IMG/VR virus record: IMGVR_UViG_3300045974_000806
Span: 46,272 to 110,271 of that record
Length of the DNA stretch: 64,000 nucleotides
Strand: one strand, 5' to 3'
Source of the DNA: a virus
Position numbers and translations under genes: made by a program
Shown: piece by piece, positions 26,041 through 57,564 of the stretch
How the letters are laid out: each line of letters opens with the position of its first letter
Position numbering within the stretch: position 1 is the first letter of the stretch
Notes under the pieces: model-generated
What the model was told of the DNA's origin: nothing
Seen by the model: only the letters and a program-made list of their open reading frames with translations
Databases searched by the model: none

Positions 26041-26084
26041 CCCAACCTTCCGGAAGCACGGCCGCGGTGGTACTGCTGGCCCCC

Positions 26085-27839: not shown

Positions 27840-30800
27840 ATGGTTGCAGACCGCATTGCAGGCACCGCAGACCGCATGGGCGCCATGATGCCCCGTGCCC
27901 AGTCCCAGCGGTTCGTGGTGACCCAATACGGCGCCCCGCCGGAGCCCATGACCCCAGGGCAGGTTCCCGGCGTCACGCCCATCCCTGGCCTGTTCAGCCT
28001 GCCGGCCGCGGACCCTACGCCGGCCGCCCTGCTGGATGACCGCCCGGTGGTGACCGTGGAGGGCGTGACGCGGGACCTGGGCCTGGACCCGGCCCAGGAC
28101 AACGCGCTCCGGAAGTACGTGCAGACCATCATCACCGCGGACAATGAGGCGGTGCTGCGCCAGCAGGTGGTGAGTTACGCCATGACCGCCGGCTTTGACC
28201 CGGACACGCGGCGCATCCTGCTGGCCAGGGTGCTCAAGTTCTACGCGTCCAAGGGCAAGAGCCAGGGCAAGCTGGCCATCCTGAAGCAGGCCGTGCGCGG
28301 GCTCCGGAATAAGCCCAGCGGCGCGGAGGCCACCATGGAGAAGGCCGGCCCGTTCATTGGCCCCAAGGGCGGGAAGTGGGCGGACGCGGCCCACAAGGTT
28401 CCGTGGGTGGACCAAGCGGCGGACCTCAAGCCCCATGGGACCATGCAGCCGCATGAAGTCCTGGCGGAACTGAAGGCCCAGGACCGCGCCGGCAAGCACG
28501 GCAAAGAGCAGGACGCCGCCGCCTACCACGTTCCGGAAGAGGAGCACGTGCTGGTGGACGTGCCTGTGGACCACACGCTGGACCATGACGTTTACGACAG
28601 GGACACGGGAGACTCCGGCGGGCTGGACAGCAGGACCGGAACGCACCTGGGGGCGCACAAGAAGGCGCGCGTGGAAGACTACGCAGCGCGCACCACCAAG
28701 GCCCCGCCCATCCACCTCACCTATGGCGCCCGCGCCCAGCAGAAGGCGCATGGTCAAGCCGGCGTGATGCAGGGCAACCACCGCCTGGAAGCGGCCAAGC
28801 AACGCGGGGACGGCACCATCACCGCCATGATGCCCAGGTCGCACTTTGAAGCCTGGAAGGCGCACCGGGAGAAGCGGTTCGTGGAGGGCCATGCCCACTG
28901 GCGGGACGTGGAACTGCCCGCCTTTCGTGAGCGTGATGGGCTGGACAAGTCCCAGTTCGACGAGGATGACACCATGCAGAAGAGCAGCGGCCCGTTCATC
29001 GGTCCCAACGGCGGCAAGTGGCGGGATGCGAAGCACACGCAGCACTGGACCGCGGAGGATGAGCGCGCCCACCGCGGCCCCAACCCGCACGTCCAGCACG
29101 TGCCCTGGGACAGTGGGACGCACGACAAGCCAACCAACAAGCCAATGCCCGCGGGCGCCTCGCATGGCACCTACGCCACCGCCGACAAGCCGGGCTACGC
29201 CACCGTTGTGACTGACCGCGCGGCAGCGGACGCCTGGGACAAGGAGACGCGCGCCGCGGCGGAGGCCGCAGACCGGTCTGCGGACATCCATCGCATGGTG
29301 CCCAGGCCGGTGGGCGTCATGCACTACCCCACCAAGGGTGAGACGGGCAGCGTCCCCATTGCATCCCAGCACGGCCTCTACACGGTGCATCCGGAGACGG
29401 GCGTCATGCCCATTGTGGACCGCGGCTGGACGCAATCCCGCCCAGGCCCACGCAAGCGTGCTTGGACCGTCAGCCACGCGCCTTCGGGCCTGCGCGTGAA
29501 GCAGACCTTGACCTCCCGGGAAGCCGCGGAGGCCCTGGCCCGGCACATGGCGAAGCACGCGCCCACCGCCGGCGCGTCATGGGTGCTGGGGCACACGCCG
29601 GCCAAGGAAGATCCGGAACTGCAACACATTGTGACCACGCGCGCCGCCCACCTCACCCAGGTGAAGGCGGAGAAGGACGCCAAGGAGGCCGTGTCCCGTG
29701 AGGCATCTGACCGGGCCTACCGGGAAGCTGAAGCCCGCGAGAAAGCGGACGAGGAGCGCCTTTTGGTCCCCACGGCCGCGGTGGACTACGCGGTGACGGA
29801 TGCCAAGGCGCACGCCAAGGACGCCCCGCCGGCGTTCCGGAGGGAGCACGACAACGGCGTGGAGTTCGCGGCCAAGATCGTGGCGGACAAGCAGTTCCGT
29901 GACCCGGCGTTCTCGGACACGCGCAAGCAGATGGCCACCACGGACAACATGCACGGCAAGGGCATGGTCCTGGCGGCCCACGTGGCCCACCTTCCGGAAG
30001 ACGAGGCCCATTCCTGGCTGACGCGCATGGCCCAGGACAAGGCCCTGGGGAAGCCCAAGGGCCGCGGTGGCCATGGCGGTTCCGCGGGTGAGCACTTCCG
30101 GAACCTCAAGTCCAACAGCCCGTTCTGGCACGGCGTCTACGCGTTTGGGCACCACCTGCAAGTGGGCGTGGACCCGGAGCGCCGGGCCGGCTTCAACAAG
30201 GACAACAAGGCCCGGCTGGCGGCGGCCCACCCGGGCGTGGTGGAGCAGCGCCTGGAAGCGCCGGCCCCGGAGCGTGACCCCGCGCATGACTACGGCTTCA
30301 CGCCCAACACCGCGGAGGTGGTGCCCGCCGGCGACCCCGGCGTGAACTGGGGTCCGGACGCAGCCACCAAGGACGCATGGTCCCGCGAGGCCCAGACAGC
30401 CCTGGACAACATCAGCGAGATGCACGCCGCCCCGCCCACGTTCACCATTCCGGAACACCCTCCGGAACCCGTGGTGGTGGCCATGCCCACCGCCGCGGAC
30501 GTGGCCCCCACCCGCGCGCCCAGGGGCAAGGCCGCCAAGGCGCCGGCCAAGCAGATGGACCTGTTTGGGAAGGCCACGGCGTTCCACGTGGACCCGCTGC
30601 TGGCACTGGCCACCGTGCTGTCCAAGGCCGCCACCCCGTTCCTGGGGCCGCACGGCGGGAAGTGGGCCAACGCCGCGCACACCATCCCGTGGAGTGACAA
30701 GGTGCATGGGGAGAAGGCCAGCGCCACGCCCCACGCCGCGTTCCACCCGGACATCAAGGCCCTGGGGGAGATGACCCGCACCGGCCGCGCGGACCCGGAC

Positions 30801-31589
30801 CTGCTGGCCCGGCTGCACAAGCTGGCCCAGGACCCCCAGCACACCCAACAGGTGCATGAGGCCGCCAAGCACAGCCTGGGCAACGCCAAGGAACTCCACA
30901 GCGCCATGGAGCCCAACCGGGATGAGGTGCGCGTGAAGTACATGCAGGGCGGCGGCCCAGGTGCCCAGACGGCCATGGAGGACGTGGCCCTGGGCCAGCG
31001 GTCCCTGGACAACCTGTCCGGCCACCTTGAGAAGCTGACCGCGGCCACCAAGCCCGCGGCCGGCGCGCGCAAGCCCAAGGCCCCCAAGGGCCAGGGGGAC
31101 CTGTTTGGTGGAGCCGCGCCGGCCCCGGCACCCAAGCCGGCCGCCAAGCCCAAGGACACCTCCCAGGGGGACCTGTTTGGCGGAGGCACGGAGAAGTCCG
31201 CGCGGTTCGTGGTGGGCGAGGAGTACCTGGGCAAGGCGGACCCGCGCGGTGGGAAGTACCACGCACGCGTGACGGACAAGGAGTCCGGCAAGCACCGCTA
31301 CTTCTACGACGAGGGCAAGTTCAAGCAGAGCGGCCACGCCCCGGTGATGGGCGCCACCGCCATGAGGGACAAGGCGCGCAAGGACATCATGGACGCGGTG
31401 GGAGGAAGCCGGGAGGGCGTGAAGCCTGGGGACCTGAAGCTGGACCCCCGCTATCCGGAAACCCTGGTGACGGACTTGATCAAGGAACTGACCGACGGCA
31501 ACCACCTGAACCTGTCCGGAGACACGTTGAAGCGCCCCGGTGAGCCGGTGACCATCCGTCCGGAAACCGTCCGCACCAGCATGGGCTGA
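27840..31589 (+). CDS. large modular head-associated protein (1249 aa) with a ParB-like domain
   Basis: three GPFIGPxGGKW tags; PPIHL..VMQGNHRLEAAKQRG ParB-like motif; QxDLF motifs. Confidence 0.75.
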   Translation: MVADRIAGTADRMGAMMPRAQSQRFVVTQYGAPPEPMTPGQVPGVTPIPGLFSLPAADPTPAALLDDRPVVTVEGVTRDLGLDPAQDNALRKYVQTIITADNEAVLRQQVVSYAMTAGFDPDTRRILLARVLKFYASKGKSQGKLAILKQAVRGLRNKPSGAEATMEKAGPFIGPKGGKWADAAHKVPWVDQAADLKPHGTMQPHEVLAELKAQDRAGKHGKEQDAAAYHVPEEEHVLVDVPVDHTLDHDVYDRDTGDSGGLDSRTGTHLGAHKKARVEDYAARTTKAPPIHLTYGARAQQKAHGQAGVMQGNHRLEAAKQRGDGTITAMMPRSHFEAWKAHREKRFVEGHAHWRDVELPAFRERDGLDKSQFDEDDTMQKSSGPFIGPNGGKWRDAKHTQHWTAEDERAHRGPNPHVQHVPWDSGTHDKPTNKPMPAGASHGTYATADKPGYATVVTDRAAADAWDKETRAAAEAADRSADIHRMVPRPVGVMHYPTKGETGSVPIASQHGLYTVHPETGVMPIVDRGWTQSRPGPRKRAWTVSHAPSGLRVKQTLTSREAAEALARHMAKHAPTAGASWVLGHTPAKEDPELQHIVTTRAAHLTQVKAEKDAKEAVSREASDRAYREAEAREKADEERLLVPTAAVDYAVTDAKAHAKDAPPAFRREHDNGVEFAAKIVADKQFRDPAFSDTRKQMATTDNMHGKGMVLAAHVAHLPEDEAHSWLTRMAQDKALGKPKGRGGHGGSAGEHFRNLKSNSPFWHGVYAFGHHLQVGVDPERRAGFNKDNKARLAAAHPGVVEQRLEAPAPERDPAHDYGFTPNTAEVVPAGDPGVNWGPDAATKDAWSREAQTALDNISEMHAAPPTFTIPEHPPEPVVVAMPTAADVAPTRAPRGKAAKAPAKQMDLFGKATAFHVDPLLALATVLSKAATPFLGPHGGKWANAAHTIPWSDKVHGEKASATPHAAFHPDIKALGEMTRTGRADPDLLARLHKLAQDPQHTQQVHEAAKHSLGNAKELHSAMEPNRDEVRVKYMQGGGPGAQTAMEDVALGQRSLDNLSGHLEKLTAATKPAAGARKPKAPKGQGDLFGGAAPAPAPKPAAKPKDTSQGDLFGGGTEKSARFVVGEEYLGKADPRGGKYHARVTDKESGKHRYFYDEGKFKQSGHAPVMGATAMRDKARKDIMDAVGGSREGVKPGDLKLDPRYPETLVTDLIKELTDGNHLNLSGDTLKRPGEPVTIRPETVRTSMG

Positions 31590-31645
31590 CGCGCACGCTG
31601 GAACGGAATGCGGTATGAAGGTGGGCAACCCCGTTGGAGACTTCC

Positions 31646-34096
31646 ATGACCGTGACCAAAGAAGAGAAGGCCGCCAAGCTGGCCAAGGCCATTGCAGCGG
31701 CCAAGGCGCATCAGGAAGAGCAGGCCAAGGCCCGCACGCTGGCCAAAGCCGCGCCGCCCCCGCATGCGCCCGCGGAAGGGCACACCATGCCGGAGGACCC
31801 GGGGAGCAAGAAGATTGAGCAGGACGAAACCAAGCTGGCCAACATCCAGGCCGGCGTGGATGAGAAGACCACCACGGAAGCGCGCAAGGAAGGCGACGAC
31901 GAACAGACGGAGAAGGGCTGCGGCCCGTCCGTGGTGAAGGCGCCCCTGTCCAAGGGCCTGGGGGACTGGCTGGCCAAGGCCGGCGAGGAAGGGGACGCCG
32001 GCCCATCATCCGGAGCGGATGACGCGGCGGAGGATGACAAGAAGGAGAAGGCCGCGGAGGACAAGGTGGCCCAGGAAACGGGCGACACCGACCCGGCCCA
32101 GGACGCCGCCAAGGAGAAGATGCAGGAACGCATGGACAAGGCCCGCCACGGCTTCACCGGCACCCCCAAGCTGACCACCGGAACCACGGAGCCGGCGGAG
32201 CCTGGGGAGCGCAAGGAGCCGTCCCTTCCGGAAGCACCGCCGCCCACCAAGGAAGCCCAGGTGCAGCGCGCCACGCCGCCCAGCAAGGTCAACAAGGTCA
32301 TGCCCAACGCCAAGCCCGTCCGCGGCAAGCCCGCGGTGGCCAGCAAGGCGCCACCGGAAGAGAACGGCCAGCAGGGCGCCATTGCCGCCCAGGACAAGCC
32401 GGCCCCCGTGCCCGCCCCGGTCAAGAAGTCCCTGGGCCTGGGCGAGTGGCTGTCCAAGGCGGTTCCGGACATGACCATCCTGCCCATCCCCATGGGGGAG
32501 GACACGGACGACGGCGGCGGGACGGCGGACGGTGACGTGGACGCGGTGACCCTCATGCAGCCGGCGTGGCAGGACAATGAGGCCCAGTGGGACATTGACC
32601 GGCTGGCCGTGGAAGCGGTGGACGAGGAGGAAGGCGTGCAGAAGGGCGTGTTCATTGGACCCAACGGTGGGAAGTGGGACGACGCGGCGCACAAGCGCCA
32701 CCACACAGAAGGGGGCGCACCTTCCGGAACCAGCACCCCCAACCACGTGCTGGGCAAGACCACCTCCGGCAAGGACATCCATCAGGACCACAAGCATCCG
32801 GACCACGCTGCGTTCACCGCCCATGACCATCTGGACGCGGTGAAGGTGCAAGAGTCCCAACGCTCCCAGGCCATCAACCTCGCGCGCAAAGCCCCGGCCG
32901 GCTCCGCCAAGGCCACCGCGCTGTATGGGGAAGCGAACCACGCCGCGGACGCAGCAACGCATCACGCTGACGCGGCGCGTGCGGCGCACCCTGGCACGTC
33001 CGCCGGCGCAAAGGCGCTGCATGACGCGGCCAACGTGGCCACCAAGACGGCGGACAAGAAGGGGACCGCGGACGCGCACTTCAAGGCCGCCCGCGCGCAT
33101 CAGGCAGCCGCGGACGCCCACGCGCCCCTGGACCACGCCGGCCGCAAGTGGCCCGGTGGGTATGAAACCGCGGGCAAGCACGCCGACCACGTGAAGCAGG
33201 CCGCGGAGCACCATGACAAGGGCACCACCATGCAGCGCGCCGCCTTGGCGGCCAACATCAAGAAGAGCGAGGGAGACATGGACGGACTTTCCGGATGGTT
33301 GAAGAAGGCAGGCATTCCTGGCGCCGCGGATGAGAGCGGCGGCGTGGCCCAGCATGATTGGAAAGAGGGCACGCCGGACATTGAGCCCGGGGAGCAGGCC
33401 AACGGGCATTGGATGGGTGGCGACGGAGAAAAGAGCCCGCCCCCGTCTGACGGCACGCACATCCGGAACCAGCGCCCAGGTGGCGGCAAGTCCGAAGGCA
33501 TCCCGGGGACGGAAGGCGCCCCCAGCGTGGACAGCGAGTCCCTGTCCGCGGATGACGGCCCGGTTGGCAAGATGCCCACGGGTGAGCCCGGCGTTGTGAC
33601 CGTGAAGGTCCCGGTTCCGGAAGCATCCATGGAGAAGGGCAACCTCCGGAACGTGGAGGATGAGGTGGCCGCGTCCCGCAATGCCGCGCTCCGGAAGGCG
33701 GCCATTGAGGGCAGCAAGTCCATCCGCGTGGGCCAGGACGGCGTGCGCTTCACGGCGCCGGCGGTTCCGGAAGCCCCCAAGCCGCTGCTCAAGGGCCTGG
33801 GCGCGGCCGTCTATTCGGACGGCGAGGACCAGCAGATTGCGGCCATGCTTGAGAAGGGCCAGGGCTACTACGGTGGCGGGTCCGCCCCCAGCATCCCCGC
33901 GGTGTCCATGCTCCGGAAGTCCGCCTGTGGGAACTGCGGCGCTCCGCAGCCGGCATGGCTCACGCGCTGCGGCAACTGCGGCGTTGACGCCGGTGGCGGG
34001 AACATGGTCAAGGCCGAAGCACCGCGGGGACGCCTCACGCTGCGGCAGGCCAATGTCCTGCGCCTGCCCAACGGCGCCACCATCCCCAAGGTCTGA
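31646..34096 (+). CDS. large low-complexity putative internal head protein (816 aa)
   Basis: RBS GGAG, ATG at 31646; one tag copy; many hydrophobic-x-K-[AGS] sites; C-terminal CGNC..CGNC. Confidence 0.7.
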   Translation: MTVTKEEKAAKLAKAIAAAKAHQEEQAKARTLAKAAPPPHAPAEGHTMPEDPGSKKIEQDETKLANIQAGVDEKTTTEARKEGDDEQTEKGCGPSVVKAPLSKGLGDWLAKAGEEGDAGPSSGADDAAEDDKKEKAAEDKVAQETGDTDPAQDAAKEKMQERMDKARHGFTGTPKLTTGTTEPAEPGERKEPSLPEAPPPTKEAQVQRATPPSKVNKVMPNAKPVRGKPAVASKAPPEENGQQGAIAAQDKPAPVPAPVKKSLGLGEWLSKAVPDMTILPIPMGEDTDDGGGTADGDVDAVTLMQPAWQDNEAQWDIDRLAVEAVDEEEGVQKGVFIGPNGGKWDDAAHKRHHTEGGAPSGTSTPNHVLGKTTSGKDIHQDHKHPDHAAFTAHDHLDAVKVQESQRSQAINLARKAPAGSAKATALYGEANHAADAATHHADAARAAHPGTSAGAKALHDAANVATKTADKKGTADAHFKAARAHQAAADAHAPLDHAGRKWPGGYETAGKHADHVKQAAEHHDKGTTMQRAALAANIKKSEGDMDGLSGWLKKAGIPGAADESGGVAQHDWKEGTPDIEPGEQANGHWMGGDGEKSPPPSDGTHIRNQRPGGGKSEGIPGTEGAPSVDSESLSADDGPVGKMPTGEPGVVTVKVPVPEASMEKGNLRNVEDEVAASRNAALRKAAIEGSKSIRVGQDGVRFTAPAVPEAPKPLLKGLGAAVYSDGEDQQIAAMLEKGQGYYGGGSAPSIPAVSMLRKSACGNCGAPQPAWLTRCGNCGVDAGGGNMVKAEAPRGRLTLRQANVLRLPNGATIPKV

Positions 34097-34114
34097 CCAC
34101 AAAGGGAGCGCCAC

Positions 34115-36109: not shown

Positions 36110-36111
36110 CC

Positions 36112-36507
36112 ATGCGCATGAAGCACAAGGTGAACGTCGTGGTCACGGAGGACGTGAACGGCAAGAACAAGCTGTTCGCTCCGGATGACGCGCTGGCGGA
36201 GGTGACGCTGGACGGCTTCACGGAGGTGTCCATGGGCACGGTGGGCCTGGACGCCAATGCGGCGTTCAACGTGCCCCTGGGCGGCATCAGCAACGTCCGC
36301 GGGCTCTACCTCAAGTCTTCTGGGGACTTTGCCCTGGTGCTCAACGGCGGTGCCCCGGTGAACATCACGCGCGGCGTGGCCACCGCCAACGGCAGCAAGG
36401 CTGCCAGCGCCAAGGTGTTCCTTGAGGCCGCGCTCACCAGCATCAGCCTCACCAACGGTGCCCTGGCCAGCAGTCTAAGCTACCTTGTCTGGGGCGACCC
36501 CCTGTAA
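36112..36507 (+). CDS. putative virion structural protein
   Basis: beta-rich small protein directly after portal. Confidence 0.5.
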   Translation: MRMKHKVNVVVTEDVNGKNKLFAPDDALAEVTLDGFTEVSMGTVGLDANAAFNVPLGGISNVRGLYLKSSGDFALVLNGGAPVNITRGVATANGSKAASAKVFLEAALTSISLTNGALASSLSYLVWGDPL

Positions 36508-36524
36508 CCCATGAGGTGACATCC

Positions 36525-36755
36525 ATGAACGCCACCGCCACGCGCGCGCCGGACGGCTCCGCCCCCAAGTCCGGGGAATGGTGCCTCACGCCGGACAAGC
36601 AGCGCATTCAAGTTGTGTGTCCCATGTGCGTCCCGCCCTGCGTGGCTCACGTGGGCCTGGACCACGTGAGCCACATCAACATGGTGCTCAACGTGTGCGC
36701 CGGCTGTCAGCAGATCACCACCATCACCCTGGAAGGGTATCCGGTTCCGGAATGA
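36525..36755 (+). CDS. small Zn-ribbon protein
   Basis: CPMC...CAGC; RBS GAGG. Confidence 0.55.
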   Translation: MNATATRAPDGSAPKSGEWCLTPDKQRIQVVCPMCVPPCVAHVGLDHVSHINMVLNVCAGCQQITTITLEGYPVPE

Positions 36756-42514: not shown

Positions 42515-42525
42515 TCCGGAACCTT

Positions 42526-42565
42526 TGCTTTTTGTATTGCCTTCCGGAACCGGAGGAACTAAGTG
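42526..42565 (+). promoter_or_regulatory. conserved sigma70-like promoter, copy 4
   Basis: TGCTTTTTGTA-TTGCCT-N17-TAAGTG. Confidence 0.65.
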
Positions 42566-42619
42566 TTGGGCTCCACCAAGGACGCGCCTCAAAACAGGGC
42601 GCCCACCAAGGAGAACCCA

Positions 42620-44617: not shown

Positions 44618-44692
44618 AGCGGCCCCTGGCCCGGTGGCGCCTTCCGGAATGGATGGCCGCCACCGGGTCCCTGCGGTAGTCTCGCGCGCACC

Positions 44693-47600
44693 ATGCCCTT
44701 GCTCACCGCGCGCCTCATCCAAGAGATCAAAGAGATCATCCGGAAGCACCACACGGCGTTCGTGGCCAACGCGTTTGGCAAGGACGTGCTCCCCCCGGAA
44801 GCGGTGGAGAAGCTGCGCGCGGCCGGCCTCATCAGCCAGACACAGGGCAGCAGCCTGGACGACGCCTACCTCTACGGGCAGGTGATGGCCCAGGTGGAGA
44901 AGCCGGAGGTGGCCGAGTGGTCCGCCGCCCAGGTCCGGTCCTACGCGGCCCAGAACCCCGTCCCCCTCACCCAGGTGGAGCGTGAAGCGGTGAAGACGGC
45001 CCGGCTCACCGGCGCGGAGTATTGCCAGGGCCTGGGCAACGTCATTGAGAAGCAGACCGGCCAGTTGCTGATCGAGGCGGACCACGCGCTGCGGGAAGAC
45101 CTGCAGGGGAAGATTGCGGACGCCACTGCGGTGAACATTGCCGCGCGCGGCACGGTGAAGGCGCTCAAGACGGACCTGGGCTGGGCCACGCAGGACTGGG
45201 CCAGGAACTTGGACCGCATTGCCATCACGGAGAAGCAGAACGCGATGCAGCAGGGTGTGGCGGATGGCATCCGGAAGCGCGTGGGGGAGGAAGCCCGCGT
45301 GTCCATCCGGTGCATGCCGGACGCCTGTGGCGCGTGCCGGGCGTTCAGCATTGGCCCGGACGGCGCCCCGCGCATCTACCGCCTGAGCCAGTTGGGGCCT
45401 CCGGGCTCCAACGTCCACCGCAAGCAGAACGCGTGGGTGGCGTGCGTGGGCGCGGTGCATCCGCACTGCCATCCCGCAGGGACCGTGGTTCAGACGCGGC
45501 GGGGGCGCATCCCGATTGAGACGGTGGTGCCGGGGGACATGGTGCTGACGCACCGGGGCCGGTGGATGCCTGTGAGCCACACGTGGGCGTCCCGGTATTC
45601 CGGAATCATGTTGCGCGTGAGGACGGAAAGCGCGGTGGTTGACGTGACTCCGGAGCATCCGTTGTTCCGCTCAAACGGAACCACCGCTTCCGCGCAAAAC
45701 CTCCAACAGGGTGACAACCTTTTGGACCTCCGCTTGGACGGAGAACCCGCGCCGTCGGTCCAAGGTGATGCGGACCACGGACCATCCGCGCCGCTTGAGC
45801 GCGCGCATCTTGCGCGCATCCTGTTTGGCCTTTCTCCCGCTGGCGTGCCAGTTGCCGCCGTCAACTTCCACGGCGAGCTTTTCCTGTGGGAAGGCAATGT
45901 CCACCAGAAACGTGCCCACAATGAAGCCTGGGAGCCCAGCCATTCCGACGGCGCAAAGCGCCTCATGGATGAGGCGTTCACCGGGACTTTTGAGTTGACC
46001 GCTTTGGGCTTGAAGCACCTTGAGGATGTGCCCACGGGAGTTCCGTTTGCCACGTCGGGCTGCATGCGCAGCGTTGGCGCGGGCACTACGTTCCTCCGGG
46101 CTGGACCGGGCGTTGCGGAGGCGTTGGGCTTCCCCCATCCCGCGGACGACGTGTCCAGCACGCTCCAAGCGGAGCACCACGGTCCCACGGGCCACCCCCA
46201 GCCGCCGGGCAATCTCCTGTACCGGGAGCAGTTGGTTGAGGTGCAAGTCTACAAGGACCGCTTCATCAATTTCGCGCCGGTACACCATGAGCCCTCCGTG
46301 GCTTTCAGTGCCCCGACGGTGCGGCAAGCTGCGTCCATTGTCAATGTCAGTTCAAACCAGTTTGATGGGTTGGTGTTCAACCTGACCGTTCCGGAAGATC
46401 ACAGTTACACGGCCAACGGGCTGGCCTCGCACAACTGCCAGTGCCAGTTGGTCCGCTTGCCCGTGGGCTGGGGATACAACGCGGAAGGGGAGATGGAGCC
46501 CGGCGGCCGGTTCGGCGTGGAGGTTCCGGAAGACGAGGAAGAGGCGGAGAAGGCGTTCCGGATGGAAGTGGAGCACCGGGAGGCCATGCAGAAGGGCGGC
46601 ACCCTGGACTTCCAGGGCATGCCCATCCGGATCGAACAGGACGCGGGGGAGGTGCGCCACTGGCGGGACCGTCACGGCGAGTCCGGCAGCACCACCATGC
46701 AACACGCCTACGGGGAGATTGTGGGCACCAAGGGCGCCGACGGTGACCCGGTGGACGTGTTCCTGGGCATGAACCCCAACGCGTCCCACGTCTACGTTGT
46801 CCACCAGCGGAAGAAGCGTGCGGACGGGACGTTTGGTGGCTTTGACGAGGACAAGGCGTTCCTGGGCTTCTCTTCTCCGGAAGAGGCCAAGGCCGCCTAC
46901 CTGTTGCACTACGACAACCCGGAGTTCTTTGGCGGGATGTCCGCGGTGGGCCTGGAAGACTTCCGCGCGCGCGTAGGCGCCCCCGGCCCCCTGGTGGGGG
47001 AACCGGTCCACACTCCGGAACTGACCTTCACCGTGGCGCTTCCGGAATCCGCGGCGGACATGGCCAAGGCCGCCGTCCGCCCGCCGGCCGTTCCGGACAT
47101 GACGTTCACCCTGGGCAAGGCGTTTGGCCAAGCCGCGGCCGGTCACAAGTACATCCGGCGCACGTACACCAAGGGCCATTGGGTCTATGAGTACGCGGAG
47201 CAGCACGGCGGGCACGTGAGTAGCCACGCCACGGACCCGGACAAGGTGATGCTCAAAGTGGAGCCCCACCACGCCAACGCCCTGGCGGCGCTGGCGGAGA
47301 TGCACGGCATCCATCCGGAACTGGTGCATGGGAGCACGCACGTCATGCTGCCCCTCACCCACGCCCAGGCTGATTCCATCCACCACGGTGAGACGGGCAC
47401 GCCCATCCCGGCCGCCATGCTGCCCACGCCGGCCCTGGCCACCGTGCTGCCCTTCCCCACGCCCGCTCAGGTGGCCCCCGTGGCTCCGGCACCCCTGGCC
47501 CCGACCGTGGCGCCTGCGCCGGCTCAGGTGGCTCCGCGGGCACGCCCGGCCCCGGCCCAGCAGATGGGCCTCTTTGACACCATGCCCGCGGCCCAGGCCG

Positions 47601-50600
47601 TCACGCAGTCCCCGGTGACCCATCCGGCCCCCACGCCCCTGGCGGTGGCCGCCATTCCGGAGAAGAAGTGGGGCGTGGTGGGTTCCACCGCGTTCCGGAA
47701 TTGGTTCGGGGACTGGACGGTGGGCCAAGGGTCCAAGGTGGTGAACGCGGACAACACGCCGGCGGAGCAGCACGGAGCCAAGCCGGCAACCATGTTCCAC
47801 GGCACCGCGGTGGGCGGGTTCACGGAGTTCCGGAAGGACAAGGACAAGGGCACCAACATCTTTGGGCACGGCTTCTACTTCACGGCGGACAAGGGCATTG
47901 CCAAGTCCTACACGGAGAAGGATGCCAATGAGGCCAAGGCCGCCGCCACGGGTTTCTTGGACAAGGAAGGCGAGCCCATCACGCACCTGACCAAGAAGCA
48001 GGCCGCGGAACTGGCGGAGAAGGCCGCGGGCAACGCCAACCCCAACTGGGACTACAACATCCTGCACGCGGTGAAGGCCGCCGCGGAGCCGGACGGCCGC
48101 GTCAATGTGGCCACCCTGTTGAAGGAGTTCTGGAACCCCACCGGAGTGGAGACGGACGGCGGCTACAAGCAGCCCAAGCGTGAAGTGATGCCCATGGGCG
48201 GCGTGCGCTTGGTGGGCGGCATCCAGGGCCTCTTTGGGAAGAACCGCGCCGGTGAATACCACGTCAAGCCGGTCATTCCGGAGTCCCAGGTCTTTGAGGT
48301 GTACCTCAACATCCGGAACCCGGTGGACATGGACAAGGCCATGACCCGCGCGGACTTTGCGGAGTACGCGGCGTTCACGCACCGGCGTGCGTTGGAGCGT
48401 CTGAACAAGGAGTTGGAGCAGGACAAGGCCCGCGTGGAGACGAAGCGCGGGGAGATGGCGTCCGCCAAGGTGAAGCTGGCCGCGCTGGCCCCCACGCCCC
48501 CGCAGCCTACGGAGATGCGGGTTCCGGAAGGCAAGCGGAAGGCCGTCCCCATGCCGGTGGAGGAGTGGACCGGTGAGATGCGCCGGGCGATTGATGACCC
48601 CACGCATGGACAGCACGCAATGGCCCAGGCGTTTGCTTCCTGGGAGCACGCAAAGAACGAACGGGAGTTCCTGTCCCAGGCCGCGGCCGGGGAGGGCTAT
48701 GACGGGTTCAACAACGCGGTGGCGCATTCCGTCCGCACCCAGGCCCGCATTGATGCCGTCCGGCGTGAGGTTCCCGGGGAGTTCCTGCACGGCGTGCAGA
48801 TGGATGACGTGGCCCCGCGTGAGCACCGCCTCTCAGACCAAAGTGAGAGCGCCGCCAGCTATGATGACTTTGTGGCGGTGAAGCGCAGCATCAAGGGGGA
48901 CCGCACCAAGCCGGAGATGGTCACCTACGGCGGCACGTCCCGCGCCCGGGCCGGCATCCTCTACGTGGGGGAGCAGAAGCCGGGCGCCATCACCTGGGGT
49001 GAGATGCATTGGTTGATGTCCAACGGGCATGAGGCGTCCAGCCCGCGCGCGGACTTCGACGAGTGGGCGCGCGCCACGGGAAAGGATGGCGTTCACCACA
49101 CCGGCGGATGGAACATTGGCACCCACGCGCATGACGTGTGGATTGCGTTTGAACCCAACCAGATCAAGTCCTCCACGGCCAACACCACGTTTGACCCGGC
49201 CTCCAATGACATGGAGAAGGCCGGCCCTTACGTTGGCCCGCACGGCGGGCTTTGGGCGGACCCCAAGCACACCATCCATTGGTCCGCGGTCCCGCACTGG
49301 GCGCAGAAGATGGCCGCCAGCCACGCCGCGGAGATCAAGCCACACCCCACGGACCCGCACAGCCTGGAAGTGGCCGTGCCGGTGAAGCACGCTCCGGAAC
49401 TGGGCTACCAGCAGGGCCAGCACGCGGTGCCCCACAACGTGAAGCTGTCCGCGGACCTCAAGCAGGCCACGTTGCAGGTCCCCGCCCTCCCGGTGGCGCC
49501 GGACGTTCAGGCGCTTGGACGTCCAGACGTCCAGACGCCCGCCCCGGCTCCCACGCCCCCGCCTGCCCCTGTGGCACCGCCCCCGCCGCCCGCGCCCCTG
49601 GCCGGCGTGGCGCCCACGGGCAAGCCCAAGCGCAAGGGCATCACCGTGGCCCAGTTGGATATGTTTGCGCCCGCTCCGGCTGCGACGGCTCCCGTCGCAC
49701 CGGTGGTGCAGGCGCCGGCAACCCCTGCTACGGTCCCACCCGCACCTGGGCTGGACCGTCCGCCGGCGAACCCCCCCTCACCGGCGCCGGACCCGGCCCA
49801 GGCGCACCAACCCCCCAAAGAGTCTGAACCCGGATGGGACCGCATGCCGGACCCGGTTCCGGAAGCGGCACCCGCGGAGCCCATGTGGGAACCGGACACG
49901 CGCAAGCCGACGCTCACCCAGGCCGGCCTGGACACCATGGTGCGCACCGCGGTGGGCCTGGACGCTCCCGCGGCCCGCGCGCTGATGGTTTTCAGCACGT
50001 CCGACGACCCGCACCTGTCCGTGGTGGCCACCCGCATCTCCATGGGCACCAAGGGCATGACCACCTCTTTTGGGACGGACTACGACAAGCCGGAGGCCCT
50101 GGGCGCCCTGGTGGCGCAAGGGCTGGTGGAGCCGGCCCATGAGAAGCGCGGCGCCACGGACTACCAGCAGTGGCGCCTCACGCCCGCCGGCAAGGCCGCC
50201 CGCGCCGCGGTGGAAGCGGAACGCCAGCGCATGACCGCCGCCCAGGTGGCGGCCACCACGCCCGTGCGCCCGCCCCAGGCTCCGGAAGGTCCCGGGGACC
50301 GCCGCTTGCCCAAGGCCCCCGCCGGCCCGGTGGCGGCGCCGGACATCACGCGCATGACGGTGGACCCCAAGGCCAAAGGCCCGCCCGGCATGACCCCGTT
50401 TGGGATTGCCGCGGCGGACGCCCTGGCGGTGAAGCAGGGACAGCCCCCGCCCAGCGCCGGATTCGACCCCCAGGCCGCGTTCGCGGAAGCGGAGCGGATG
50501 CGCACGGCCCCTGCCACGGTTCCGGAACCCGCCCCGGCCCCCGTGAAGCCGCAACCTGGGCAGCCCGGCGCGCACGTGAAGGTGACCGTGAACCAAGGCC

Positions 50601-53600
50601 AGCGCCCGGCCAAGATCCTGGCCCGCCTGGGGGACAACGTGCTGCTGGAATACACCATGCCGGCCGGCACCACGGGCCTGCTGGTGATGGATGCCGCTCC
50701 GGACGGGAGCCTGAAGCCCAGCAAGGCGGACGCGCCGTCCTACCGGACCTGCCCCAAGAAGTGGCTCCAAGCCATCCAGGCCGCCGGCCAGGAATGGGAC
50801 GGCACCGCCCAGCGCGGGAACGTGTCCTTCACGGACGCCCTGGACCGGGCCGGCCTCACCCCGAAGAAGGGTCCGGATGGTTGGGACCGCATGCCGGAGG
50901 GGCGCATCACCAGCCAGTCCCAGCTTGACCCCAACAAGCGGTATTCCGGATGGACCATGATCGAGGCGGGCACCAAGGCCGCTCCGGAAACCCGGTGGGT
51001 CATCCAGCGCACCATGCCGGGGACCGCTTTCCTGGGAGAGGGTGGCAACGCGTTTCTGGTGCGGGACACCCCCATGGAACACGGCTACGTGGCCCTGTTT
51101 CCGGAAGGGATGGACCCCAACAAGCCGCGCGCCGCGGCCCAGGCGCCCGCCCAGGCCGCGCCGGCCCCGGCCCCCACCCCACCGCCGCCCCCGGCCCCGG
51201 AACCGCCGCCTGAGCCCACCCAGGCCGTTCCGGAAGCACCCCCGGAGGTGCCCGCGGCCATGGCCCCCTCACCCACCCGGACGGAGGCGGAGAACAAGCA
51301 GCGCGCCATGGCGGTGGGCGCGCACATCGCAGGCAGCAAAAAGGACCAAGCGGACCTCCGCAACAAGGTGGCCGCTGGCCGCCTGGATGAAGTGAGTTAC
51401 GCGGACGCGGCCAAGTTCCTGAAGAAGGAAAGCCTGATGCCCGTGATGGACGAGGCGCACTTTGAAAGCCTGGGCGCCACGCCCGGAGCCGCGCACATGG
51501 GCCTTGCCTTGGCGGCCCTGGTGGGCGCCAAGCCCCCGGACAGTGACGCCGGCCGGAAAGCGTACATTGAGGGCGTGCGGCTGGTGGCCGGTGGCATTGC
51601 CAAGCTGCGCACCGTGGCGGACGCGGACGGCTTCCGCCAGGAAGTTCTGGACATGGCGAACAACGCGGGCCGGCACGTGCGGCCCATGACCGCGGAGGAA
51701 CAGGCGCTGCTGGCGTCATTCCACCACCCGGACAGGCCGTATGAGGCCCGCCTCCGGATGAACCGCTACCTGATCGAACAGGCGGCCCCCGGGGAGGCAA
51801 TCCGGAGCATGCGCCAGAAGGACGACGGCCCCCTGGAAGTCTATTGGCTGGACCGGAGCGAGATGGAATCCGTCCATGACGTCTTCCGCGCCCTGGGACC
51901 CCGGTTCATTGCGGGCCTGGACCTGCCCATTGGCACCCGCGGTGAGTTCGGGAGCCGCAAGCGCGCCATGTTTGACCGGGACACCCAGTACGGGAAGGCC
52001 AAGGCCGTGGCCCTCAAGGCGGACGCCGTGGGTTGGGATGCCTGGAAAGCCGCCCAGGCCGCGGTGTCCAAGGACCCTGGCGCGGGCAAGTCCAAGGAGA
52101 AGAGCGCCATCCGGACGCGCTGGGAGAAGAGCCCCAGCGGCACCGTGACGATTGTGGGCGCCAAGAAGATGGTGGACGTGGGCGACCCGGAACGCTTGAA
52201 GGCCGTCCTGGGCGCGGCGGGCATCCAGCGCGGTGAGTCCCTGACCGGTGGCCAAGGTGCGTCTGACTTTGCCCACCACGTGAAGCACATGGAGGTGGCC
52301 GCCTATGACTTGGCGGACATCCTGGGCGTGGAGCCAAAGACACTGAGCCTGAGCGGCCGGCTGGCCGTGGCCATTGCGGCCCGCGGCAGCGGGAAGGCCC
52401 TGGCACACTTTGAAGCCAACGCGCGGGATGCGGACGGCAACCCCATCAAGGCCATCAACATCACCCGGCACGCCGGCGCGGGAAGCGTGGCCCATGAATG
52501 GGGGCACTTCATGGACAACGTGATGGCGGAGGCCCACGGCGGCGCCAACACGTCATCCACCGGCGCCTACGCCAGCGAGGGTGCCGGCCTTTCCGGAATG
52601 GGCTCGGAAGTGGCCACCGCCTTCCGCGGTGTGCGTGAGGCGCTCAACAAGCCGGACTGGGACAGCCGGATGAAGAACGCCCGGGAGCGCACCTCCAAGA
52701 TGGCGGAACTGAAGGGGCGTTCGGAGGACATCAACCGGGAGTTGGCGGCGCTCTACAAGACGGCGCCCGCTAAGGACGGCGTTCCGGATGCGGCGCGCGA
52801 GAAGCGCAAGCAGCGCCTGCTGTCAGAGCATGATGCGGTGCGGGAAGAGTTCGACGTGGTGAAGCGGATTGACCCGGACAAGTCCGACTACGCCAACCAC
52901 GCGTCCGTGCTGGATGACCACAAGCAGGGCAAATACTTCACGCGCGGTCGTGAGATGTTCTCGCGCGCGTTTGAAGCCTGGGTGCAGGACAAGCTGGAAG
53001 CGGACCAAGGCGGGCAGCGCCGGAACACCTATCTGGTGGACAGCACCAAGGGTGTGCAGTTCACCAACCACCACATGCCGGACGGTTCCTCCGCGCAGCC
53101 GTACCCCCAGGGTGAGGAGCGCACGCGCATTGGCGCGGCGTTTGAGAACCTGTTCGCCGCCCTCCGGAACACGGGCGCCCTGGCCAAGGCCATGCGCGCC
53201 ATGCAGTTCACCATCATGCCGGACGCCACGCTCCGGAAGAACGGCCTGTTGAATGACCCCGCGTCCCAAGCTGCTGGTGTTTCGTCTGCCGTGGGCGGCG
53301 TTGTGGTGGAGTCTGACCGCGGCCCTGGGAGGGGTCCCGGCGCTTCCATGCAAACGGCTTCAACCCCAGGTTCCCATGACCGTCCCATCGGGAGCCCCAC
53401 CGACGTAGCCGGCGTGCGGGAGTTCCTGCTCACCGGACAGCCGCGGACGTCCATCATCCGGCGTGACCCGCACGTCTATGAGTTCGACGCGGACAACATT
53501 GACTGGGTGCGGCCCATCAATCTGGAAGAGGGCGTGATGGCCACCAGCCATGACAGCCTGCAAGCCATTGAGCGGGACAACGTGGAACGCCAGACGCTGC

Positions 53601-53758
53601 AAACCACCCTGGTGCCACGCAACACGGTGAACCCGGGCTGGGCCTGGGATTCCGGAAAGTATCCGGACGCCAATGAGCAGGACCCGGTGCAGACCGGGAA
53701 GCCGGAGCCCACCGCGCGGCCCCAGGCCCCAAAGAAGAAGCCCACCAGCAGGTATTGA
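44693..53758 (+). CDS. giant polyvalent protein (3021 aa): Mu gpF-like head-morphogenesis domain with intein, InPase-like, ART-like and LPD1-like domains
   Basis: RIAITE..HPH[intein]CQC; YGEIVGTKGADGDPVDVF..DEDK; FRNWFG..FHGT..GFYFT..YLNIRNP..FEPNQIKS; AHEWGHFMD..EMFSRAFE..PYPQGEER. Confidence 0.82.
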   Translation: MPLLTARLIQEIKEIIRKHHTAFVANAFGKDVLPPEAVEKLRAAGLISQTQGSSLDDAYLYGQVMAQVEKPEVAEWSAAQVRSYAAQNPVPLTQVEREAVKTARLTGAEYCQGLGNVIEKQTGQLLIEADHALREDLQGKIADATAVNIAARGTVKALKTDLGWATQDWARNLDRIAITEKQNAMQQGVADGIRKRVGEEARVSIRCMPDACGACRAFSIGPDGAPRIYRLSQLGPPGSNVHRKQNAWVACVGAVHPHCHPAGTVVQTRRGRIPIETVVPGDMVLTHRGRWMPVSHTWASRYSGIMLRVRTESAVVDVTPEHPLFRSNGTTASAQNLQQGDNLLDLRLDGEPAPSVQGDADHGPSAPLERAHLARILFGLSPAGVPVAAVNFHGELFLWEGNVHQKRAHNEAWEPSHSDGAKRLMDEAFTGTFELTALGLKHLEDVPTGVPFATSGCMRSVGAGTTFLRAGPGVAEALGFPHPADDVSSTLQAEHHGPTGHPQPPGNLLYREQLVEVQVYKDRFINFAPVHHEPSVAFSAPTVRQAASIVNVSSNQFDGLVFNLTVPEDHSYTANGLASHNCQCQLVRLPVGWGYNAEGEMEPGGRFGVEVPEDEEEAEKAFRMEVEHREAMQKGGTLDFQGMPIRIEQDAGEVRHWRDRHGESGSTTMQHAYGEIVGTKGADGDPVDVFLGMNPNASHVYVVHQRKKRADGTFGGFDEDKAFLGFSSPEEAKAAYLLHYDNPEFFGGMSAVGLEDFRARVGAPGPLVGEPVHTPELTFTVALPESAADMAKAAVRPPAVPDMTFTLGKAFGQAAAGHKYIRRTYTKGHWVYEYAEQHGGHVSSHATDPDKVMLKVEPHHANALAALAEMHGIHPELVHGSTHVMLPLTHAQADSIHHGETGTPIPAAMLPTPALATVLPFPTPAQVAPVAPAPLAPTVAPAPAQVAPRARPAPAQQMGLFDTMPAAQAVTQSPVTHPAPTPLAVAAIPEKKWGVVGSTAFRNWFGDWTVGQGSKVVNADNTPAEQHGAKPATMFHGTAVGGFTEFRKDKDKGTNIFGHGFYFTADKGIAKSYTEKDANEAKAAATGFLDKEGEPITHLTKKQAAELAEKAAGNANPNWDYNILHAVKAAAEPDGRVNVATLLKEFWNPTGVETDGGYKQPKREVMPMGGVRLVGGIQGLFGKNRAGEYHVKPVIPESQVFEVYLNIRNPVDMDKAMTRADFAEYAAFTHRRALERLNKELEQDKARVETKRGEMASAKVKLAALAPTPPQPTEMRVPEGKRKAVPMPVEEWTGEMRRAIDDPTHGQHAMAQAFASWEHAKNEREFLSQAAAGEGYDGFNNAVAHSVRTQARIDAVRREVPGEFLHGVQMDDVAPREHRLSDQSESAASYDDFVAVKRSIKGDRTKPEMVTYGGTSRARAGILYVGEQKPGAITWGEMHWLMSNGHEASSPRADFDEWARATGKDGVHHTGGWNIGTHAHDVWIAFEPNQIKSSTANTTFDPASNDMEKAGPYVGPHGGLWADPKHTIHWSAVPHWAQKMAASHAAEIKPHPTDPHSLEVAVPVKHAPELGYQQGQHAVPHNVKLSADLKQATLQVPALPVAPDVQALGRPDVQTPAPAPTPPPAPVAPPPPPAPLAGVAPTGKPKRKGITVAQLDMFAPAPAATAPVAPVVQAPATPATVPPAPGLDRPPANPPSPAPDPAQAHQPPKESEPGWDRMPDPVPEAAPAEPMWEPDTRKPTLTQAGLDTMVRTAVGLDAPAARALMVFSTSDDPHLSVVATRISMGTKGMTTSFGTDYDKPEALGALVAQGLVEPAHEKRGATDYQQWRLTPAGKAARAAVEAERQRMTAAQVAATTPVRPPQAPEGPGDRRLPKAPAGPVAAPDITRMTVDPKAKGPPGMTPFGIAAADALAVKQGQPPPSAGFDPQAAFAEAERMRTAPATVPEPAPAPVKPQPGQPGAHVKVTVNQGQRPAKILARLGDNVLLEYTMPAGTTGLLVMDAAPDGSLKPSKADAPSYRTCPKKWLQAIQAAGQEWDGTAQRGNVSFTDALDRAGLTPKKGPDGWDRMPEGRITSQSQLDPNKRYSGWTMIEAGTKAAPETRWVIQRTMPGTAFLGEGGNAFLVRDTPMEHGYVALFPEGMDPNKPRAAAQAPAQAAPAPAPTPPPPPAPEPPPEPTQAVPEAPPEVPAAMAPSPTRTEAENKQRAMAVGAHIAGSKKDQADLRNKVAAGRLDEVSYADAAKFLKKESLMPVMDEAHFESLGATPGAAHMGLALAALVGAKPPDSDAGRKAYIEGVRLVAGGIAKLRTVADADGFRQEVLDMANNAGRHVRPMTAEEQALLASFHHPDRPYEARLRMNRYLIEQAAPGEAIRSMRQKDDGPLEVYWLDRSEMESVHDVFRALGPRFIAGLDLPIGTRGEFGSRKRAMFDRDTQYGKAKAVALKADAVGWDAWKAAQAAVSKDPGAGKSKEKSAIRTRWEKSPSGTVTIVGAKKMVDVGDPERLKAVLGAAGIQRGESLTGGQGASDFAHHVKHMEVAAYDLADILGVEPKTLSLSGRLAVAIAARGSGKALAHFEANARDADGNPIKAINITRHAGAGSVAHEWGHFMDNVMAEAHGGANTSSTGAYASEGAGLSGMGSEVATAFRGVREALNKPDWDSRMKNARERTSKMAELKGRSEDINRELAALYKTAPAKDGVPDAAREKRKQRLLSEHDAVREEFDVVKRIDPDKSDYANHASVLDDHKQGKYFTRGREMFSRAFEAWVQDKLEADQGGQRRNTYLVDSTKGVQFTNHHMPDGSSAQPYPQGEERTRIGAAFENLFAALRNTGALAKAMRAMQFTIMPDATLRKNGLLNDPASQAAGVSSAVGGVVVESDRGPGRGPGASMQTASTPGSHDRPIGSPTDVAGVREFLLTGQPRTSIIRRDPHVYEFDADNIDWVRPINLEEGVMATSHDSLQAIERDNVERQTLQTTLVPRNTVNPGWAWDSGKYPDANEQDPVQTGKPEPTARPQAPKKKPTSRY
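45671..46288 (-). CDS. HTH plus DUF559/Vsr-like endonuclease, antisense and fully nested in the intein
   Basis: VQEIARRLGVARGTVVLRL HTH; SPGE..FLVDIAF..KLAVEVDGGNWH..QDARK..LKRRGWSVVRI; RBS GGAGG 4 nt before ATG. Confidence 0.85.
   Translation of the reverse strand: MVYRREIDEAVLVDLHLNQLLPVQEIARRLGVARGTVVLRLERAGHVVRGMGEAQRLRNARSSPEERSARANAAHAARRGKRNSRGHILKVLQAQSGQLKSPGERLIHEALCAVGMAGLPGFIVGTFLVDIAFPQEKLAVEVDGGNWHASGRKAKQDARKMRALKRRGWSVVRITLDRRRGFSVQAEVQKVVTLLEVLRGSGGSV
46316..46344 (-). promoter_or_regulatory. promoter for the antisense endonuclease gene
   Basis: minus strand TTGACA (46344-46339)-N17-CACCGT (46321-46316). Confidence 0.65.
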
Positions 53759-54360: not shown

Positions 54361-54377
54361 CCGTTTTGGAGCGTGTG

Positions 54378-57420: not shown

Positions 57421-57472
57421 CCTGAGCCGTGCTGCCCCGCCTGAAACGGGGTGAAGCCGCAGGGTGGTGGGC

Positions 57473-57519
57473 AAGGGCGGGTCCTCAAGCCTCCGGGCGG
57501 GACCCGCCCTTTGTCTTTT
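57473..57519 (+). terminator. intrinsic terminator after the capsid gene
   Basis: stem AAGGGCGGGTCC/GGACCCGCCCTT followed by TGTCTTTT. Confidence 0.65.
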
Positions 57520-57564
57520 CCGGAACCGCGGCTATGTTCCGGAACCCAACCACCGGAGGCCACC

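Follow-up and report, generated by a model that had tools for sequence, protein, structure and literature searches.

Tagged giant proteins in the head gene cluster

The DNA analysed here, referred to as the window, is the last 64 kb (64,000 nucleotides) of the 110,271-bp IMG/VR virus record IMGVR_UViG_3300045974_000806, which CheckV rates as 100% complete; the window has a guanine-plus-cytosine (GC) content of 65-72%. Its plus strand carries a head-morphogenesis cluster with the gene order large terminase (25902-27836; Pfam Terminase_6C/6N), which forms the upstream border, 1249-aa open reading frame (ORF), 816/820-aa ORF, portal protein (34115-36109; Pfam Phage_portal, E=1.4e-28), 133-aa ORF, 1920/1978-aa ORF, SNF2 helicase, 3021-aa ORF, prohead protease plus scaffold, and major capsid protein. 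Four ORFs located between the terminase and capsid genes share a short recurrent peptide (the tag) that stands directly behind a conserved lysine. The original prediction held that these tagged proteins are cut by the prohead protease into separate effectors, a reading that is supported by the comparative sequence evidence presented below.

The tag copies have the form [LM]-x-K-[AGS]-G-P-[FY]-I-G-P-x-G-G-x-W-A-D-x-x-H-T-x-x-W and occur eight times in the four ORFs, always on the plus strand; in what follows a slash marks the predicted cut. The 1249-aa protein (27840-31589) contains tag 1 (28335-28406; MEK/AGPFIGPKGGKWADAAHKVPW; F/Y anchor at nt 28353; 70.7 bits), tag 2 (28974-29048; MQK/SSGPFIGPNGGKWRDAKHTQHW; anchor at nt 28995; 74.7 bits) and tag 3 (30618-30692; LSK/AATPFLGPHGGKWANAAHTIPW; anchor at nt 30639; 69 bits). 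The single copy in the low-complexity 816/820-aa protein (31634-34096), tag 4, is degenerate (32636-32704; VQK/GVFIGPNGGKWDDAAHKRHH; anchor at nt 32651; 63.9 bits). Three copies reside in the 1920-aa protein (36752-42514, in an ORF open from 36578 that would encode 1978 aa): tag 5 (37040-37111; LMK/GGPFIGPQGGLWADPKHTVHW; anchor at nt 37058; 71.2 bits), tag 6 (38213-38284; LHK/SGPFIGPNGGLWADAKHTIHW; anchor at nt 38231; 75.1 bits) and tag 7 (40421-40492; LSK/SGPFIGPQGGLWADPKHTIHW; anchor at nt 40439; 76 bits). Tag 8 (49211-49282; MEK/AGPYVGPHGGLWADPKHTIHW; anchor at nt 49229; 72.7 bits) lies in the 3021-aa protein (44693-53758). All eight are in frame at the predicted positions, the coordinates agreeing once a leader of 5-7 residues is counted.

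A profile built from the eight copies and run against the whole 110,271-bp record returned just these eight places (63.9-76 bits each) and no further match anywhere else in the genome. The copies share 46-83% DNA identity and differ in their synonymous codons, which indicates that selection acts on the tag peptide. On the same grounds, recent duplication or gene conversion is ruled out as the source of the repeats.

A second type of tag was found at both places where it had been predicted (around 31227 and 47111). One copy belongs to the 1249-aa protein (31224-31307, plus strand; LGK/ADPRGGKYHARVTDKESGKHRYFY), where it reads LGKA...GGKYHARV...GKHRYFY, and the other to the 3021-aa protein (47108-47194, plus strand; LGK/AFGQAAAGHKYIRRTYTKGHWVYEY), with LGKA...GHKYIRR...GHWVYEY. 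This type recurs elsewhere with the pattern [LF]-x-K-[AG]-x(3-8)-G-[GH]-K-Y-[ILV]-[RK]-R-x-P-x-x-G-G-x-Y-x-Y-[FY]-Y. It was counted 17 times, mostly after L-E-K-[AG], in the best 150 tag-bearing proteins, the copy of the 1249-aa protein included; no match was obtained in cultured phages or plasmids with short tblastn queries, which give weak evidence of absence.

A search of 1.84 billion representative proteins with the eight-copy profile gave 760 matches at E<=1e-3, of which 247 also reach E<=1e-10. Most of the best 150 have a length of 500-3000 aa and 2-5 matched stretches per protein, and 331 tag instances were located in these 150 of the 760 matching proteins. Their consensus is L-x-K-[AGS]-G(G)-P-[YF]-I-G-P-[RK]-G-G-K-W-A-D-[PA]-x-H-T-I-P-W-[KDE]-E, in which the conservation of G, P, G, G, W, D, H and W ranges from 84 to 100%. 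A second search, performed with a 61-sequence alignment, retrieved 912 proteins, and many of their longest contigs measure 90-113 kb. The tag was detected with short tblastn queries in none of 50,697 cultured-phage records or 72,556 plasmids, and a scan of one genome per prokaryote species with a narrower pattern yielded only three loci, all in metagenome-assembled genomes. A literature search found no paper containing the motif string.

In IMG/VR, 133 tag stretches were confirmed in 70 loci. A capsid of the family phrog_752 is encoded on 23 of the 26 longer tag-bearing contigs, including all ten that are at least 90% complete; the remaining three contigs are fragments (35-41% complete). In 12 genomes each of the 42 tags has the orientation of the capsid gene and precedes it by 5-30 kb, and the tags therefore belong to the head module. 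These genomes carry 1-6 tags each, and the window phage, with eight, has the most. Confinement to head-cluster proteins, one of the tests proposed at the outset for the profile, is thus observed in phages with one capsid/protease type. These data suggest that only one uncultured clade carries the tag, namely phages of ~100-110 kb whose heads are SPO1-like. The nearest cultured terminase, from Bacteroides phages, is only 31% identical to that of the window phage, which therefore represents an uncultured lineage; it is placed in a separate uncultured high-GC clade, apart from the cultured Herelleviridae.

The lysine leader and the prohead protease

The major capsid protein (55984-57420, plus strand) is SPO1-like: it belongs to phrog_752 (E=1.7e-84), matches the SPO1 Gp6.1 structure (PDB 9vel) at E=6e-77 and is ~35% identical to capsids of Bacillus SPO1-group phages. 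The prohead protease (residues ~1-185) and the scaffold (residues ~275-516) are encoded at 54366-55916 on the same strand (phrog_1028, phrog_15087), the former being 36% identical to the SPO1 gp3.2 protease. A literature search on the specificity of Herelleviridae proteases gave no usable paper, and the anchor for capsid cleavage is the GenBank annotation of Listeria phage A511, in which the mat_peptide of cps begins at codon 24, i.e. the cut is ...EDALK/SFTTG. In the alignment with the window capsid, ALK/S coincides with INK/A, and the distance from the Lys is 21 residues in both proteins (to LRRE in A511; to LRVE from Lys30 of ...EAINK/ALTVG in the window). Conservation and this alignment place the predicted capsid maturation site, INK/ALT after Lys30, at 56065-56082 (plus strand). 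In 19 of 20 relatives, as well as in SPO1, the capsid N-terminus reads [DE]-x-L-[NR]-K-A-L-x-A-G, and the deposited chain of a Staphylococcus phage capsid has 439 residues compared with 463 in the full-length protein, which is consistent with similar trimming. The cleavage of SPO1/Twort-type capsids after Lys, a premise of the original prediction, agrees with the A511 annotation.

Sites of the same type, hydrophobic-x-K-[AGS], are over-represented in some proteins of the head cluster. The protease-scaffold ORF carries 18 of them in total, 6 in the protease domain (0.8 expected from shuffled sequences) and 12 in the scaffold part (1.5 expected), and the 820-aa protein has 17 (3.3 expected). None of 2000 shuffles reached the counts of these three, which bears out the predicted enrichment in head proteins over background. 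No enrichment was seen in the terminase, portal and SNF2 proteins, which are at or below background, or in 27 other ORFs (21 sites vs 13.7 expected). The scaffolds of SPO1, A511 and a Staphylococcus phage are studded with x-x-K-S, and those of the relatives of the window phage contain ~15 K-[AGS] sites per 315 residues.

In 309 of the 331 tag instances K-[AGS] stands at most 8 residues upstream of the tag, so the upstream motif first noticed in the window is consistently present. P3 of these 309 sites is Leu in 65% of cases (hydrophobic in 92%), P4 and P5 are acidic, and P1' is A, G or S. The 215 K-[AGS] sites in 14 scaffolds of relatives have the same make-up, with Leu at P3 in 52%, acidic residues at P4/P5, and S, A or G at P1'. 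On this good comparative evidence, we consider it likely that the prohead protease has its site in the leader that precedes each tag.

The conservation of K-[AGS]-G-P along with the tag core could also mean that nothing is cut, and that all 26 residues, the Lys among them, form a linker mini-domain or repeat of giant proteins that stay intact, e.g. an interaction motif that spaces their domains. Cleavage is, after all, itself a prediction here, and some packaged giants, e.g. the N4 virion RNA polymerase, remain intact, as noted by Iyer et al. (2017; PMC5512222). However, a spacer of this kind is hard to reconcile with a leader that is predicted to be disordered and whose Lys varies in its distance from the core (at -4 in 146 instances, at -5 in 89 and elsewhere in 74). 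Nor does it account for a P5-P1 pattern that is that of the scaffold sites, for the depletion of sites downstream of the tag, or for the tiny hydrophobic-x-K leader that N-terminal tags retain. We therefore regard this alternative as quite unlikely.

Since the conserved fold lies directly on the P' side of the site, the tag might instead be an exosite that recruits the prohead protease (or a scaffold-bound protease) to the junctions and has no later role. Simple hydrophobic-x-K-[AGS] sites elsewhere are untagged, and the tag could accordingly mark the obligatory cuts. Yet the scaffold and capsid sites are presumably cut without a tag, and N-terminal tags with leaders of 3-10 residues gain nothing from efficient cutting, which makes a pure exosite very improbable.

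The predicted cut need not be made by the prohead protease. The 3021-aa protein contains a zincin-like HEWGH motif upstream of its LPD1 domain, and processing driven by metallopeptidases (MPTases) is what Iyer et al. predict (PMC5512222); a host protease could also be envisaged. However, the remaining three tagged proteins lack such a domain, a peptidase family (Hint domains aside) was listed for none of the best 120 tag-bearing proteins, and the site pattern is that of the scaffold and capsid sites of the prohead protease. We give this option almost no credence.

Some observations on the proteins with predicted cut sites may be added. The 820-aa protein contains three G-L-G-[DE]-W-L-x-K-A repeats, every one ending in a predicted cut site, and its density of such sites (2.07 per 100 aa) is near that of the scaffold; a CxxC...CxxC zinc-ribbon-like motif (weak Pfam DZR match) is present at its C-terminus. 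It is probably a heavily processed core or internal protein, and it may be a sacrificial core protein. The protease and scaffold form one continuous 516-codon ORF in the window, with a possible internal start at Met275, and are encoded by separate ORFs in all 19 relatives having a protease match. In A511 and some relatives the C-terminal part of the protease repeats the capsid cut site plus ~30 residues beyond it. Finally, in the 3021-aa protein the InPase domain is flanked on both sides by predicted cut sites that lack a tag (residues 634, 792 and 809; 46592-46597, 47066-47071 and 47117-47122): AMQK/GG at the first residue of the domain, and DMAK/AA and TLGK/AF behind it. This suggests that some domain boundaries use a predicted cut site without a tag.

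Cargo domains and the role of the tag

Several features bear on the side of the junction to which the tag belongs. Predicted sites number 0.97 per tag over the 10 residues that directly precede it and 0.27 over the ten farther upstream, and their density falls to 0-0.03 per 10 residues over the ~80 residues behind the tag (background 0.05-0.08). Thirty-eight of the 331 tags are located within 25 residues of the annotated N-terminus, 35 of them after Met, and the short leaders of these N-terminal tags still end in hydrophobic-x-K. An in-frame stop occurs within 40 codons upstream of 8 of 126 tags in viral DNA. No tag is nearer than 48 residues to the C-terminus (median distance 394). Site polarity, N-terminal tags, upstream stops and the lack of C-terminal tags together indicate that the tag goes with the downstream cargo, on which, after the predicted cleavage, it would probably be retained as the new N-terminus. 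The idea that the tag is a C-terminal signal of the preceding domain was rejected, because N-terminal tags occur and C-terminal ones never do.

The sequences joined by the tag are highly diverse. The 160 residues that follow it fall into 178 BLAST clusters among 323 segments (135 singletons), and those that precede it into 142 clusters among 278 segments, in agreement with the predicted variability of the downstream domains. The positions of homologous tag-plus-cargo cassettes range from residue 6 to residue 2799, and 9 of 25 families have N-terminal as well as internal members. The kinase-like cargo of the 1920-aa protein is preceded by a tag in the window and in four of seven relatives, and by an untagged helical segment in the other three. 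A further candidate, in which the tag is merely the start of one larger conserved domain, was discarded, since the downstream sequences are mostly unrelated and the kinase-like cargo also occurs untagged.

The 1920-aa protein has the layout tag, kinase-like domain, tag, PAPS-reductase region, tag, ddrB-ParB. Of the domains named in the original prediction, PAPS_reduct and ddrB-ParB (E=1.2e-18) were confirmed with Pfam, and the kinase-like domain by structure: its AlphaFold model has a mean predicted local distance difference test (pLDDT) value of 81.6, and every top Foldseek hit listed is a kinase domain, almost always that of a protein kinase, with probability 1.00. DarA_C gave only a weak match (E=0.084), and the "ParB-like" domain proposed for the 1249-aa protein was found by no hidden Markov model (HMM); no Pfam or PHROG family matched this protein, in which one type-2 tag is present besides three type-1 tags and three Q-x-D-L-F motifs. 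The 3021-aa protein, delineated by Pfam, PHROGs and sequence reading, consists of an N-terminal part with an intein, InPase (E=5.9e-33, Pfam), the type-2 tag, ART-PolyVal, the type-1 tag, the HEWGH region and LPD1. Among the best 120 tag-bearing proteins, InPase is present in 28, a zeta-toxin-type family in 9, ART-PolyVal in 8, a topoisomerase IB family in 7, GGDEF in 6, ddrB-ParB in 6, SNF2 in 3 and RelA/SpoT in 2. GNAT, DarA_C, LPD1 and PAPS_reduct are likewise among the cargo, and many tag-bearing proteins have no recognizable family.

The tag appears to be a small folded unit. AlphaFold, supplied with the 61-sequence alignment, modelled its 20-residue core with a pLDDT of ~90 and the ten-residue leader with 54; in the model, short beta bridges connect F-I to L-W around a G-P-x-G-G turn. 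No match to a known folded domain was found: Pfam gave no hit at E<=10 with 60-77-residue tag pieces, the PDB nothing better than E=0.55 in a profile search, Foldseek no hit at E<=0.001 with the tag model, and PHROGs and the ESM Atlas nothing usable.

The best explanation of these data, and in our judgement a moderately probable one, is a protease-resolved junction combined with a cargo tag that capsid-borne proteins keep at their N-terminus. The junction would have two parts: (i) a flexible leader ending in [DE]-[DE]-L-x-K/[AGS], the same site as predicted for the prohead serine protease in the capsid propeptide and, with ~15 occurrences, in the scaffold, and (ii) a mini-fold of ~22 residues, G-P-[YF]-I-G-P-[RK]-G-G-K-W-A-D-[PA]-x-H-T-I-P-W, behind which a basic linker leads to the cargo domain. 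The giants would be taken up into the procapsid in polyprotein form. Head maturation would then include a cut at every junction, and the released effectors (kinase-like, ParB, PAPS-reductase-like, ART and others) would each keep the tag as their new N-terminus. As a packaging signal, the tag would dock its cargo to a conserved component inside the procapsid. We put forward this specific role only tentatively, as the most economical one. Because the protease would resolve the junctions, tag-plus-cargo cassettes could be freely fused, split and shuffled. Every cargo would once have been a separate N-terminally tagged gene, and fusions would have been neutral in the presence of the protease. Such a history would explain the multiplicity of tags without extra assumptions, and it agrees with the families found in both N-terminal and internal positions.

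The presence of several tags per polyprotein also suits a function that each fragment needs after cleavage, and the tag could then be a small nucleic-acid-binding or host-directed module instead of a packaging signal. In this alternative the R-G-G-K-W segment, together with the His/Trp residues and the Lys-rich linker, would keep each fragment bound to the packaged DNA, so that both are ejected together, or would direct it to a host target. The tag is slightly basic, and the 10 residues behind it are rich in Lys (14-22% per position). It is also strongly conserved although the capsids of the carrier phages are only 42-60% identical, as might be expected of a universal ligand such as DNA. However, the tag resembles no known DNA-binding domain, and a generic ligand requires neither its confinement to the head module of one capsid lineage nor its absence from plasmid polyvalent proteins. 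We consider such a module rather unlikely.

An additional feature of the same linkers, pointing to the host side, may be considered as an argument for a host-directed module. The Pro/Ala-rich linkers contain the pentapeptides QMDLF, QGDLF (twice), QLGLF, QMGLF and QLDMF, of the form Q-x-x-[LM]-F, in the 1249-aa protein (30552-30566, ~31092-31106 and 31164-31178), the 1920-aa protein (~38571-38585) and the 3021-aa protein (~47561-47575 and ~49652-49666). In the best 150 tag-bearing proteins this motif was found 72 times (17.8 expected), mostly as QLGLF, QLSLF or QLDLF. It matches QL[SD]LF, the consensus for binding to the bacterial beta sliding clamp. In an enlarged set of 186 tag-bearing proteins with 88 motifs, the Lys of a predicted cut site follows directly in 16% of cases (1.5% at random positions), and cleavage would therefore leave the clamp-like motif at the C-terminus of the fragment. 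The fragments may be effectors that, once injected, dock on the host clamp.

Several points weigh against a protease-resolved junction with a capsid-loading tag. The tag was found in none of the cultured phages searched, and both the cleavage and the presence of these proteins in virions are inferred from sequence. About 7% of the tags have no K-[AGS] nearby, and the upstream Lys could belong to the motif for a structural reason, although the variable spacing counts against this. One tag would be enough to target a whole polyprotein, and the multiplicity of tags fits a role after cleavage (retention, DNA binding, ejection or a host-side function) no less well. That the tag is restricted to one capsid family may be due simply to common descent within the clade. 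A HEWGH region, the route proposed by Iyer et al., is present in the 3021-aa protein itself. No binding partner for the tag was found, a small ORF beside the portal gene being detectable in only 8 of 12 genomes. With these points taken into account, the tag is possibly, but by no means certainly, a portable capsid-loading (and possibly ejection) signal which, with the protease-resolved junction, would allow any enzyme to be plugged into the head.

Other features of the cluster are of interest in their own right. The SNF2-family helicase (42563-44617, plus strand; Pfam) lies between two tagged giants and has neither a tag nor a leader site; elsewhere in the clade the tag is fused to SNF2 domains (proteins P0066, P0104 and P0182). 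The intein of the 3021-aa protein (Pfam Hint_2 and Intein_splicing; 45464-46435, residues ~258-581) has the borders ...AVHPH/C...SHN/CQCQLVRLP, where the slashes denote splice junctions, and the spliced product would read HPHCQC. This resembles the HPxCRC motif of MuF/SPP1 gp7 head proteins; no HMM confirmed a MuF-like N-terminus of the 3021-aa protein. Directly behind the capsid gene, a 187-aa ORF (57451-58011) matches the Nif11 domain (Pfam, E=5.5e-6, above the gathering score). Nif11 is familiar above all as part of the leader peptides of ribosomal natural products, and its presence in a phage head/neck module is unexpected.

Comparison with known systems

For the way in which polyvalent proteins enter capsids and are cut into working units, the sole earlier proposal known to us is self-processing by embedded metallopeptidases. 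For one large uncultured clade we propose a testable alternative, a junction composed of a prohead-protease site and a retained tag of ~22 residues. Since the tag marks ~760-900 protein clusters, hundreds of unannotated segments are probable injected effectors, flagged alongside kinase-like, zeta-toxin-like, GGDEF, RelA/SpoT, GNAT, ART and topoisomerase IB domains; the whole set would constitute a catalogue of early host-takeover and counter-defence functions. If the proposal is true, cargo genes can fuse and split at no cost, which would explain both the origin and the processing of giant polyvalent proteins, and the phages possess a natural modular cargo-delivery kit distinct from the capsid-targeting sequence (CTS) of T4. 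Should the tag suffice for packaging, it would join the T4 CTS as the second natural means of bringing foreign proteins into phage heads.

Encapsulin cargo-loading peptides are likewise short and Gly-rich, occur on unrelated cargo and bind the interior of an HK97-fold shell. They differ from the tag in being C-terminal (or N-terminal) extensions with another consensus, no associated protease and no sequence similarity.

According to Iyer, Burroughs, Anand, de Souza and Aravind (2017; PMC5512222), polyvalent proteins are encoded near portal and terminase genes, are predicted to be packaged and injected, and have been proposed to be processed by embedded zincin-like peptidases; a junction peptide or tag motif did not turn up in the passages retrieved from that paper. 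In domain content and gene neighbourhood the window giants are bona fide phage-type polyvalent proteins. The tagged proteins of the clade share InPase, ddrB-ParB, ART-PolyVal, DarA_C, LPD1, RelA/SpoT and SNF2 domains with this group; of the signature domains limited to phage-type members, InPase and ddrB-ParB are clearly present in the window and DarA_C is only weakly matched. Two of the giants combine unrelated effector domains (PAPS_reduct, ddrB-ParB and the kinase-like fold in the 1920-aa protein; InPase, ART-PolyVal, LPD1 and Hint in the 3021-aa protein), and the genes of the giants lie between those for the terminase, portal, protease-scaffold and capsid. In contrast, the search of 72,556 plasmids revealed no tag on plasmid-borne polyvalent proteins.

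The head itself is homologous to that of the Herelleviridae (SPO1, A511, Twort-like): the capsid (35% identity) belongs to phrog_752, the protease (36% identity) is related, the scaffold is rich in K-[SAG] sites, and the predicted capsid site after Lys is conserved and aligned with the annotated mature end of A511. The cultured Herelleviridae, however, have neither the tag nor tagged polyproteins.

Giant phages provide a precedent for processed cargo, since in phiKZ, 201phi2-1 and SPN3US the prohead protease recognizes a short consensus in many inner-body or ejection proteins and cuts them there, in some cases at several sites, before they are delivered to the host (PMC10052503). Their cut after A/S/G-x-E removes long N-terminal propeptides, whereas the predicted cut in the window follows Lys. 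To our knowledge, neither a shared retained tag nor multi-effector polyproteins have been described in these phages.

A system similar in design is the T4 CTS (IPI-III and Alt; protease gp21), which is viewed as a means to load varied proteins into the head (PMC9026906). There a short portable peptide brings diverse, fast-evolving cargo to the procapsid core, the prohead protease makes its cut beside this peptide, and the cargo leaves the head with the DNA; the tag would act in a comparable way, and one tag peptide indeed stands before a multitude of unrelated cargo segments. The CTS is an N-terminal propeptide of 10-19 residues that is removed after L/I-x-E. In the window phage and its relatives L-x-K/[AGS] is the site predicted for cleavage, and the window protease is of the SPO1 type; the 80 residues behind the tag are almost free of sites, and some leaders measure no more than 3-8 residues. 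Unlike the CTS, the tag lies behind the predicted cut and would be retained; it is a predicted mini-fold that recurs internally, and it would thus accompany the resolution of polyproteins into several separate cargos.

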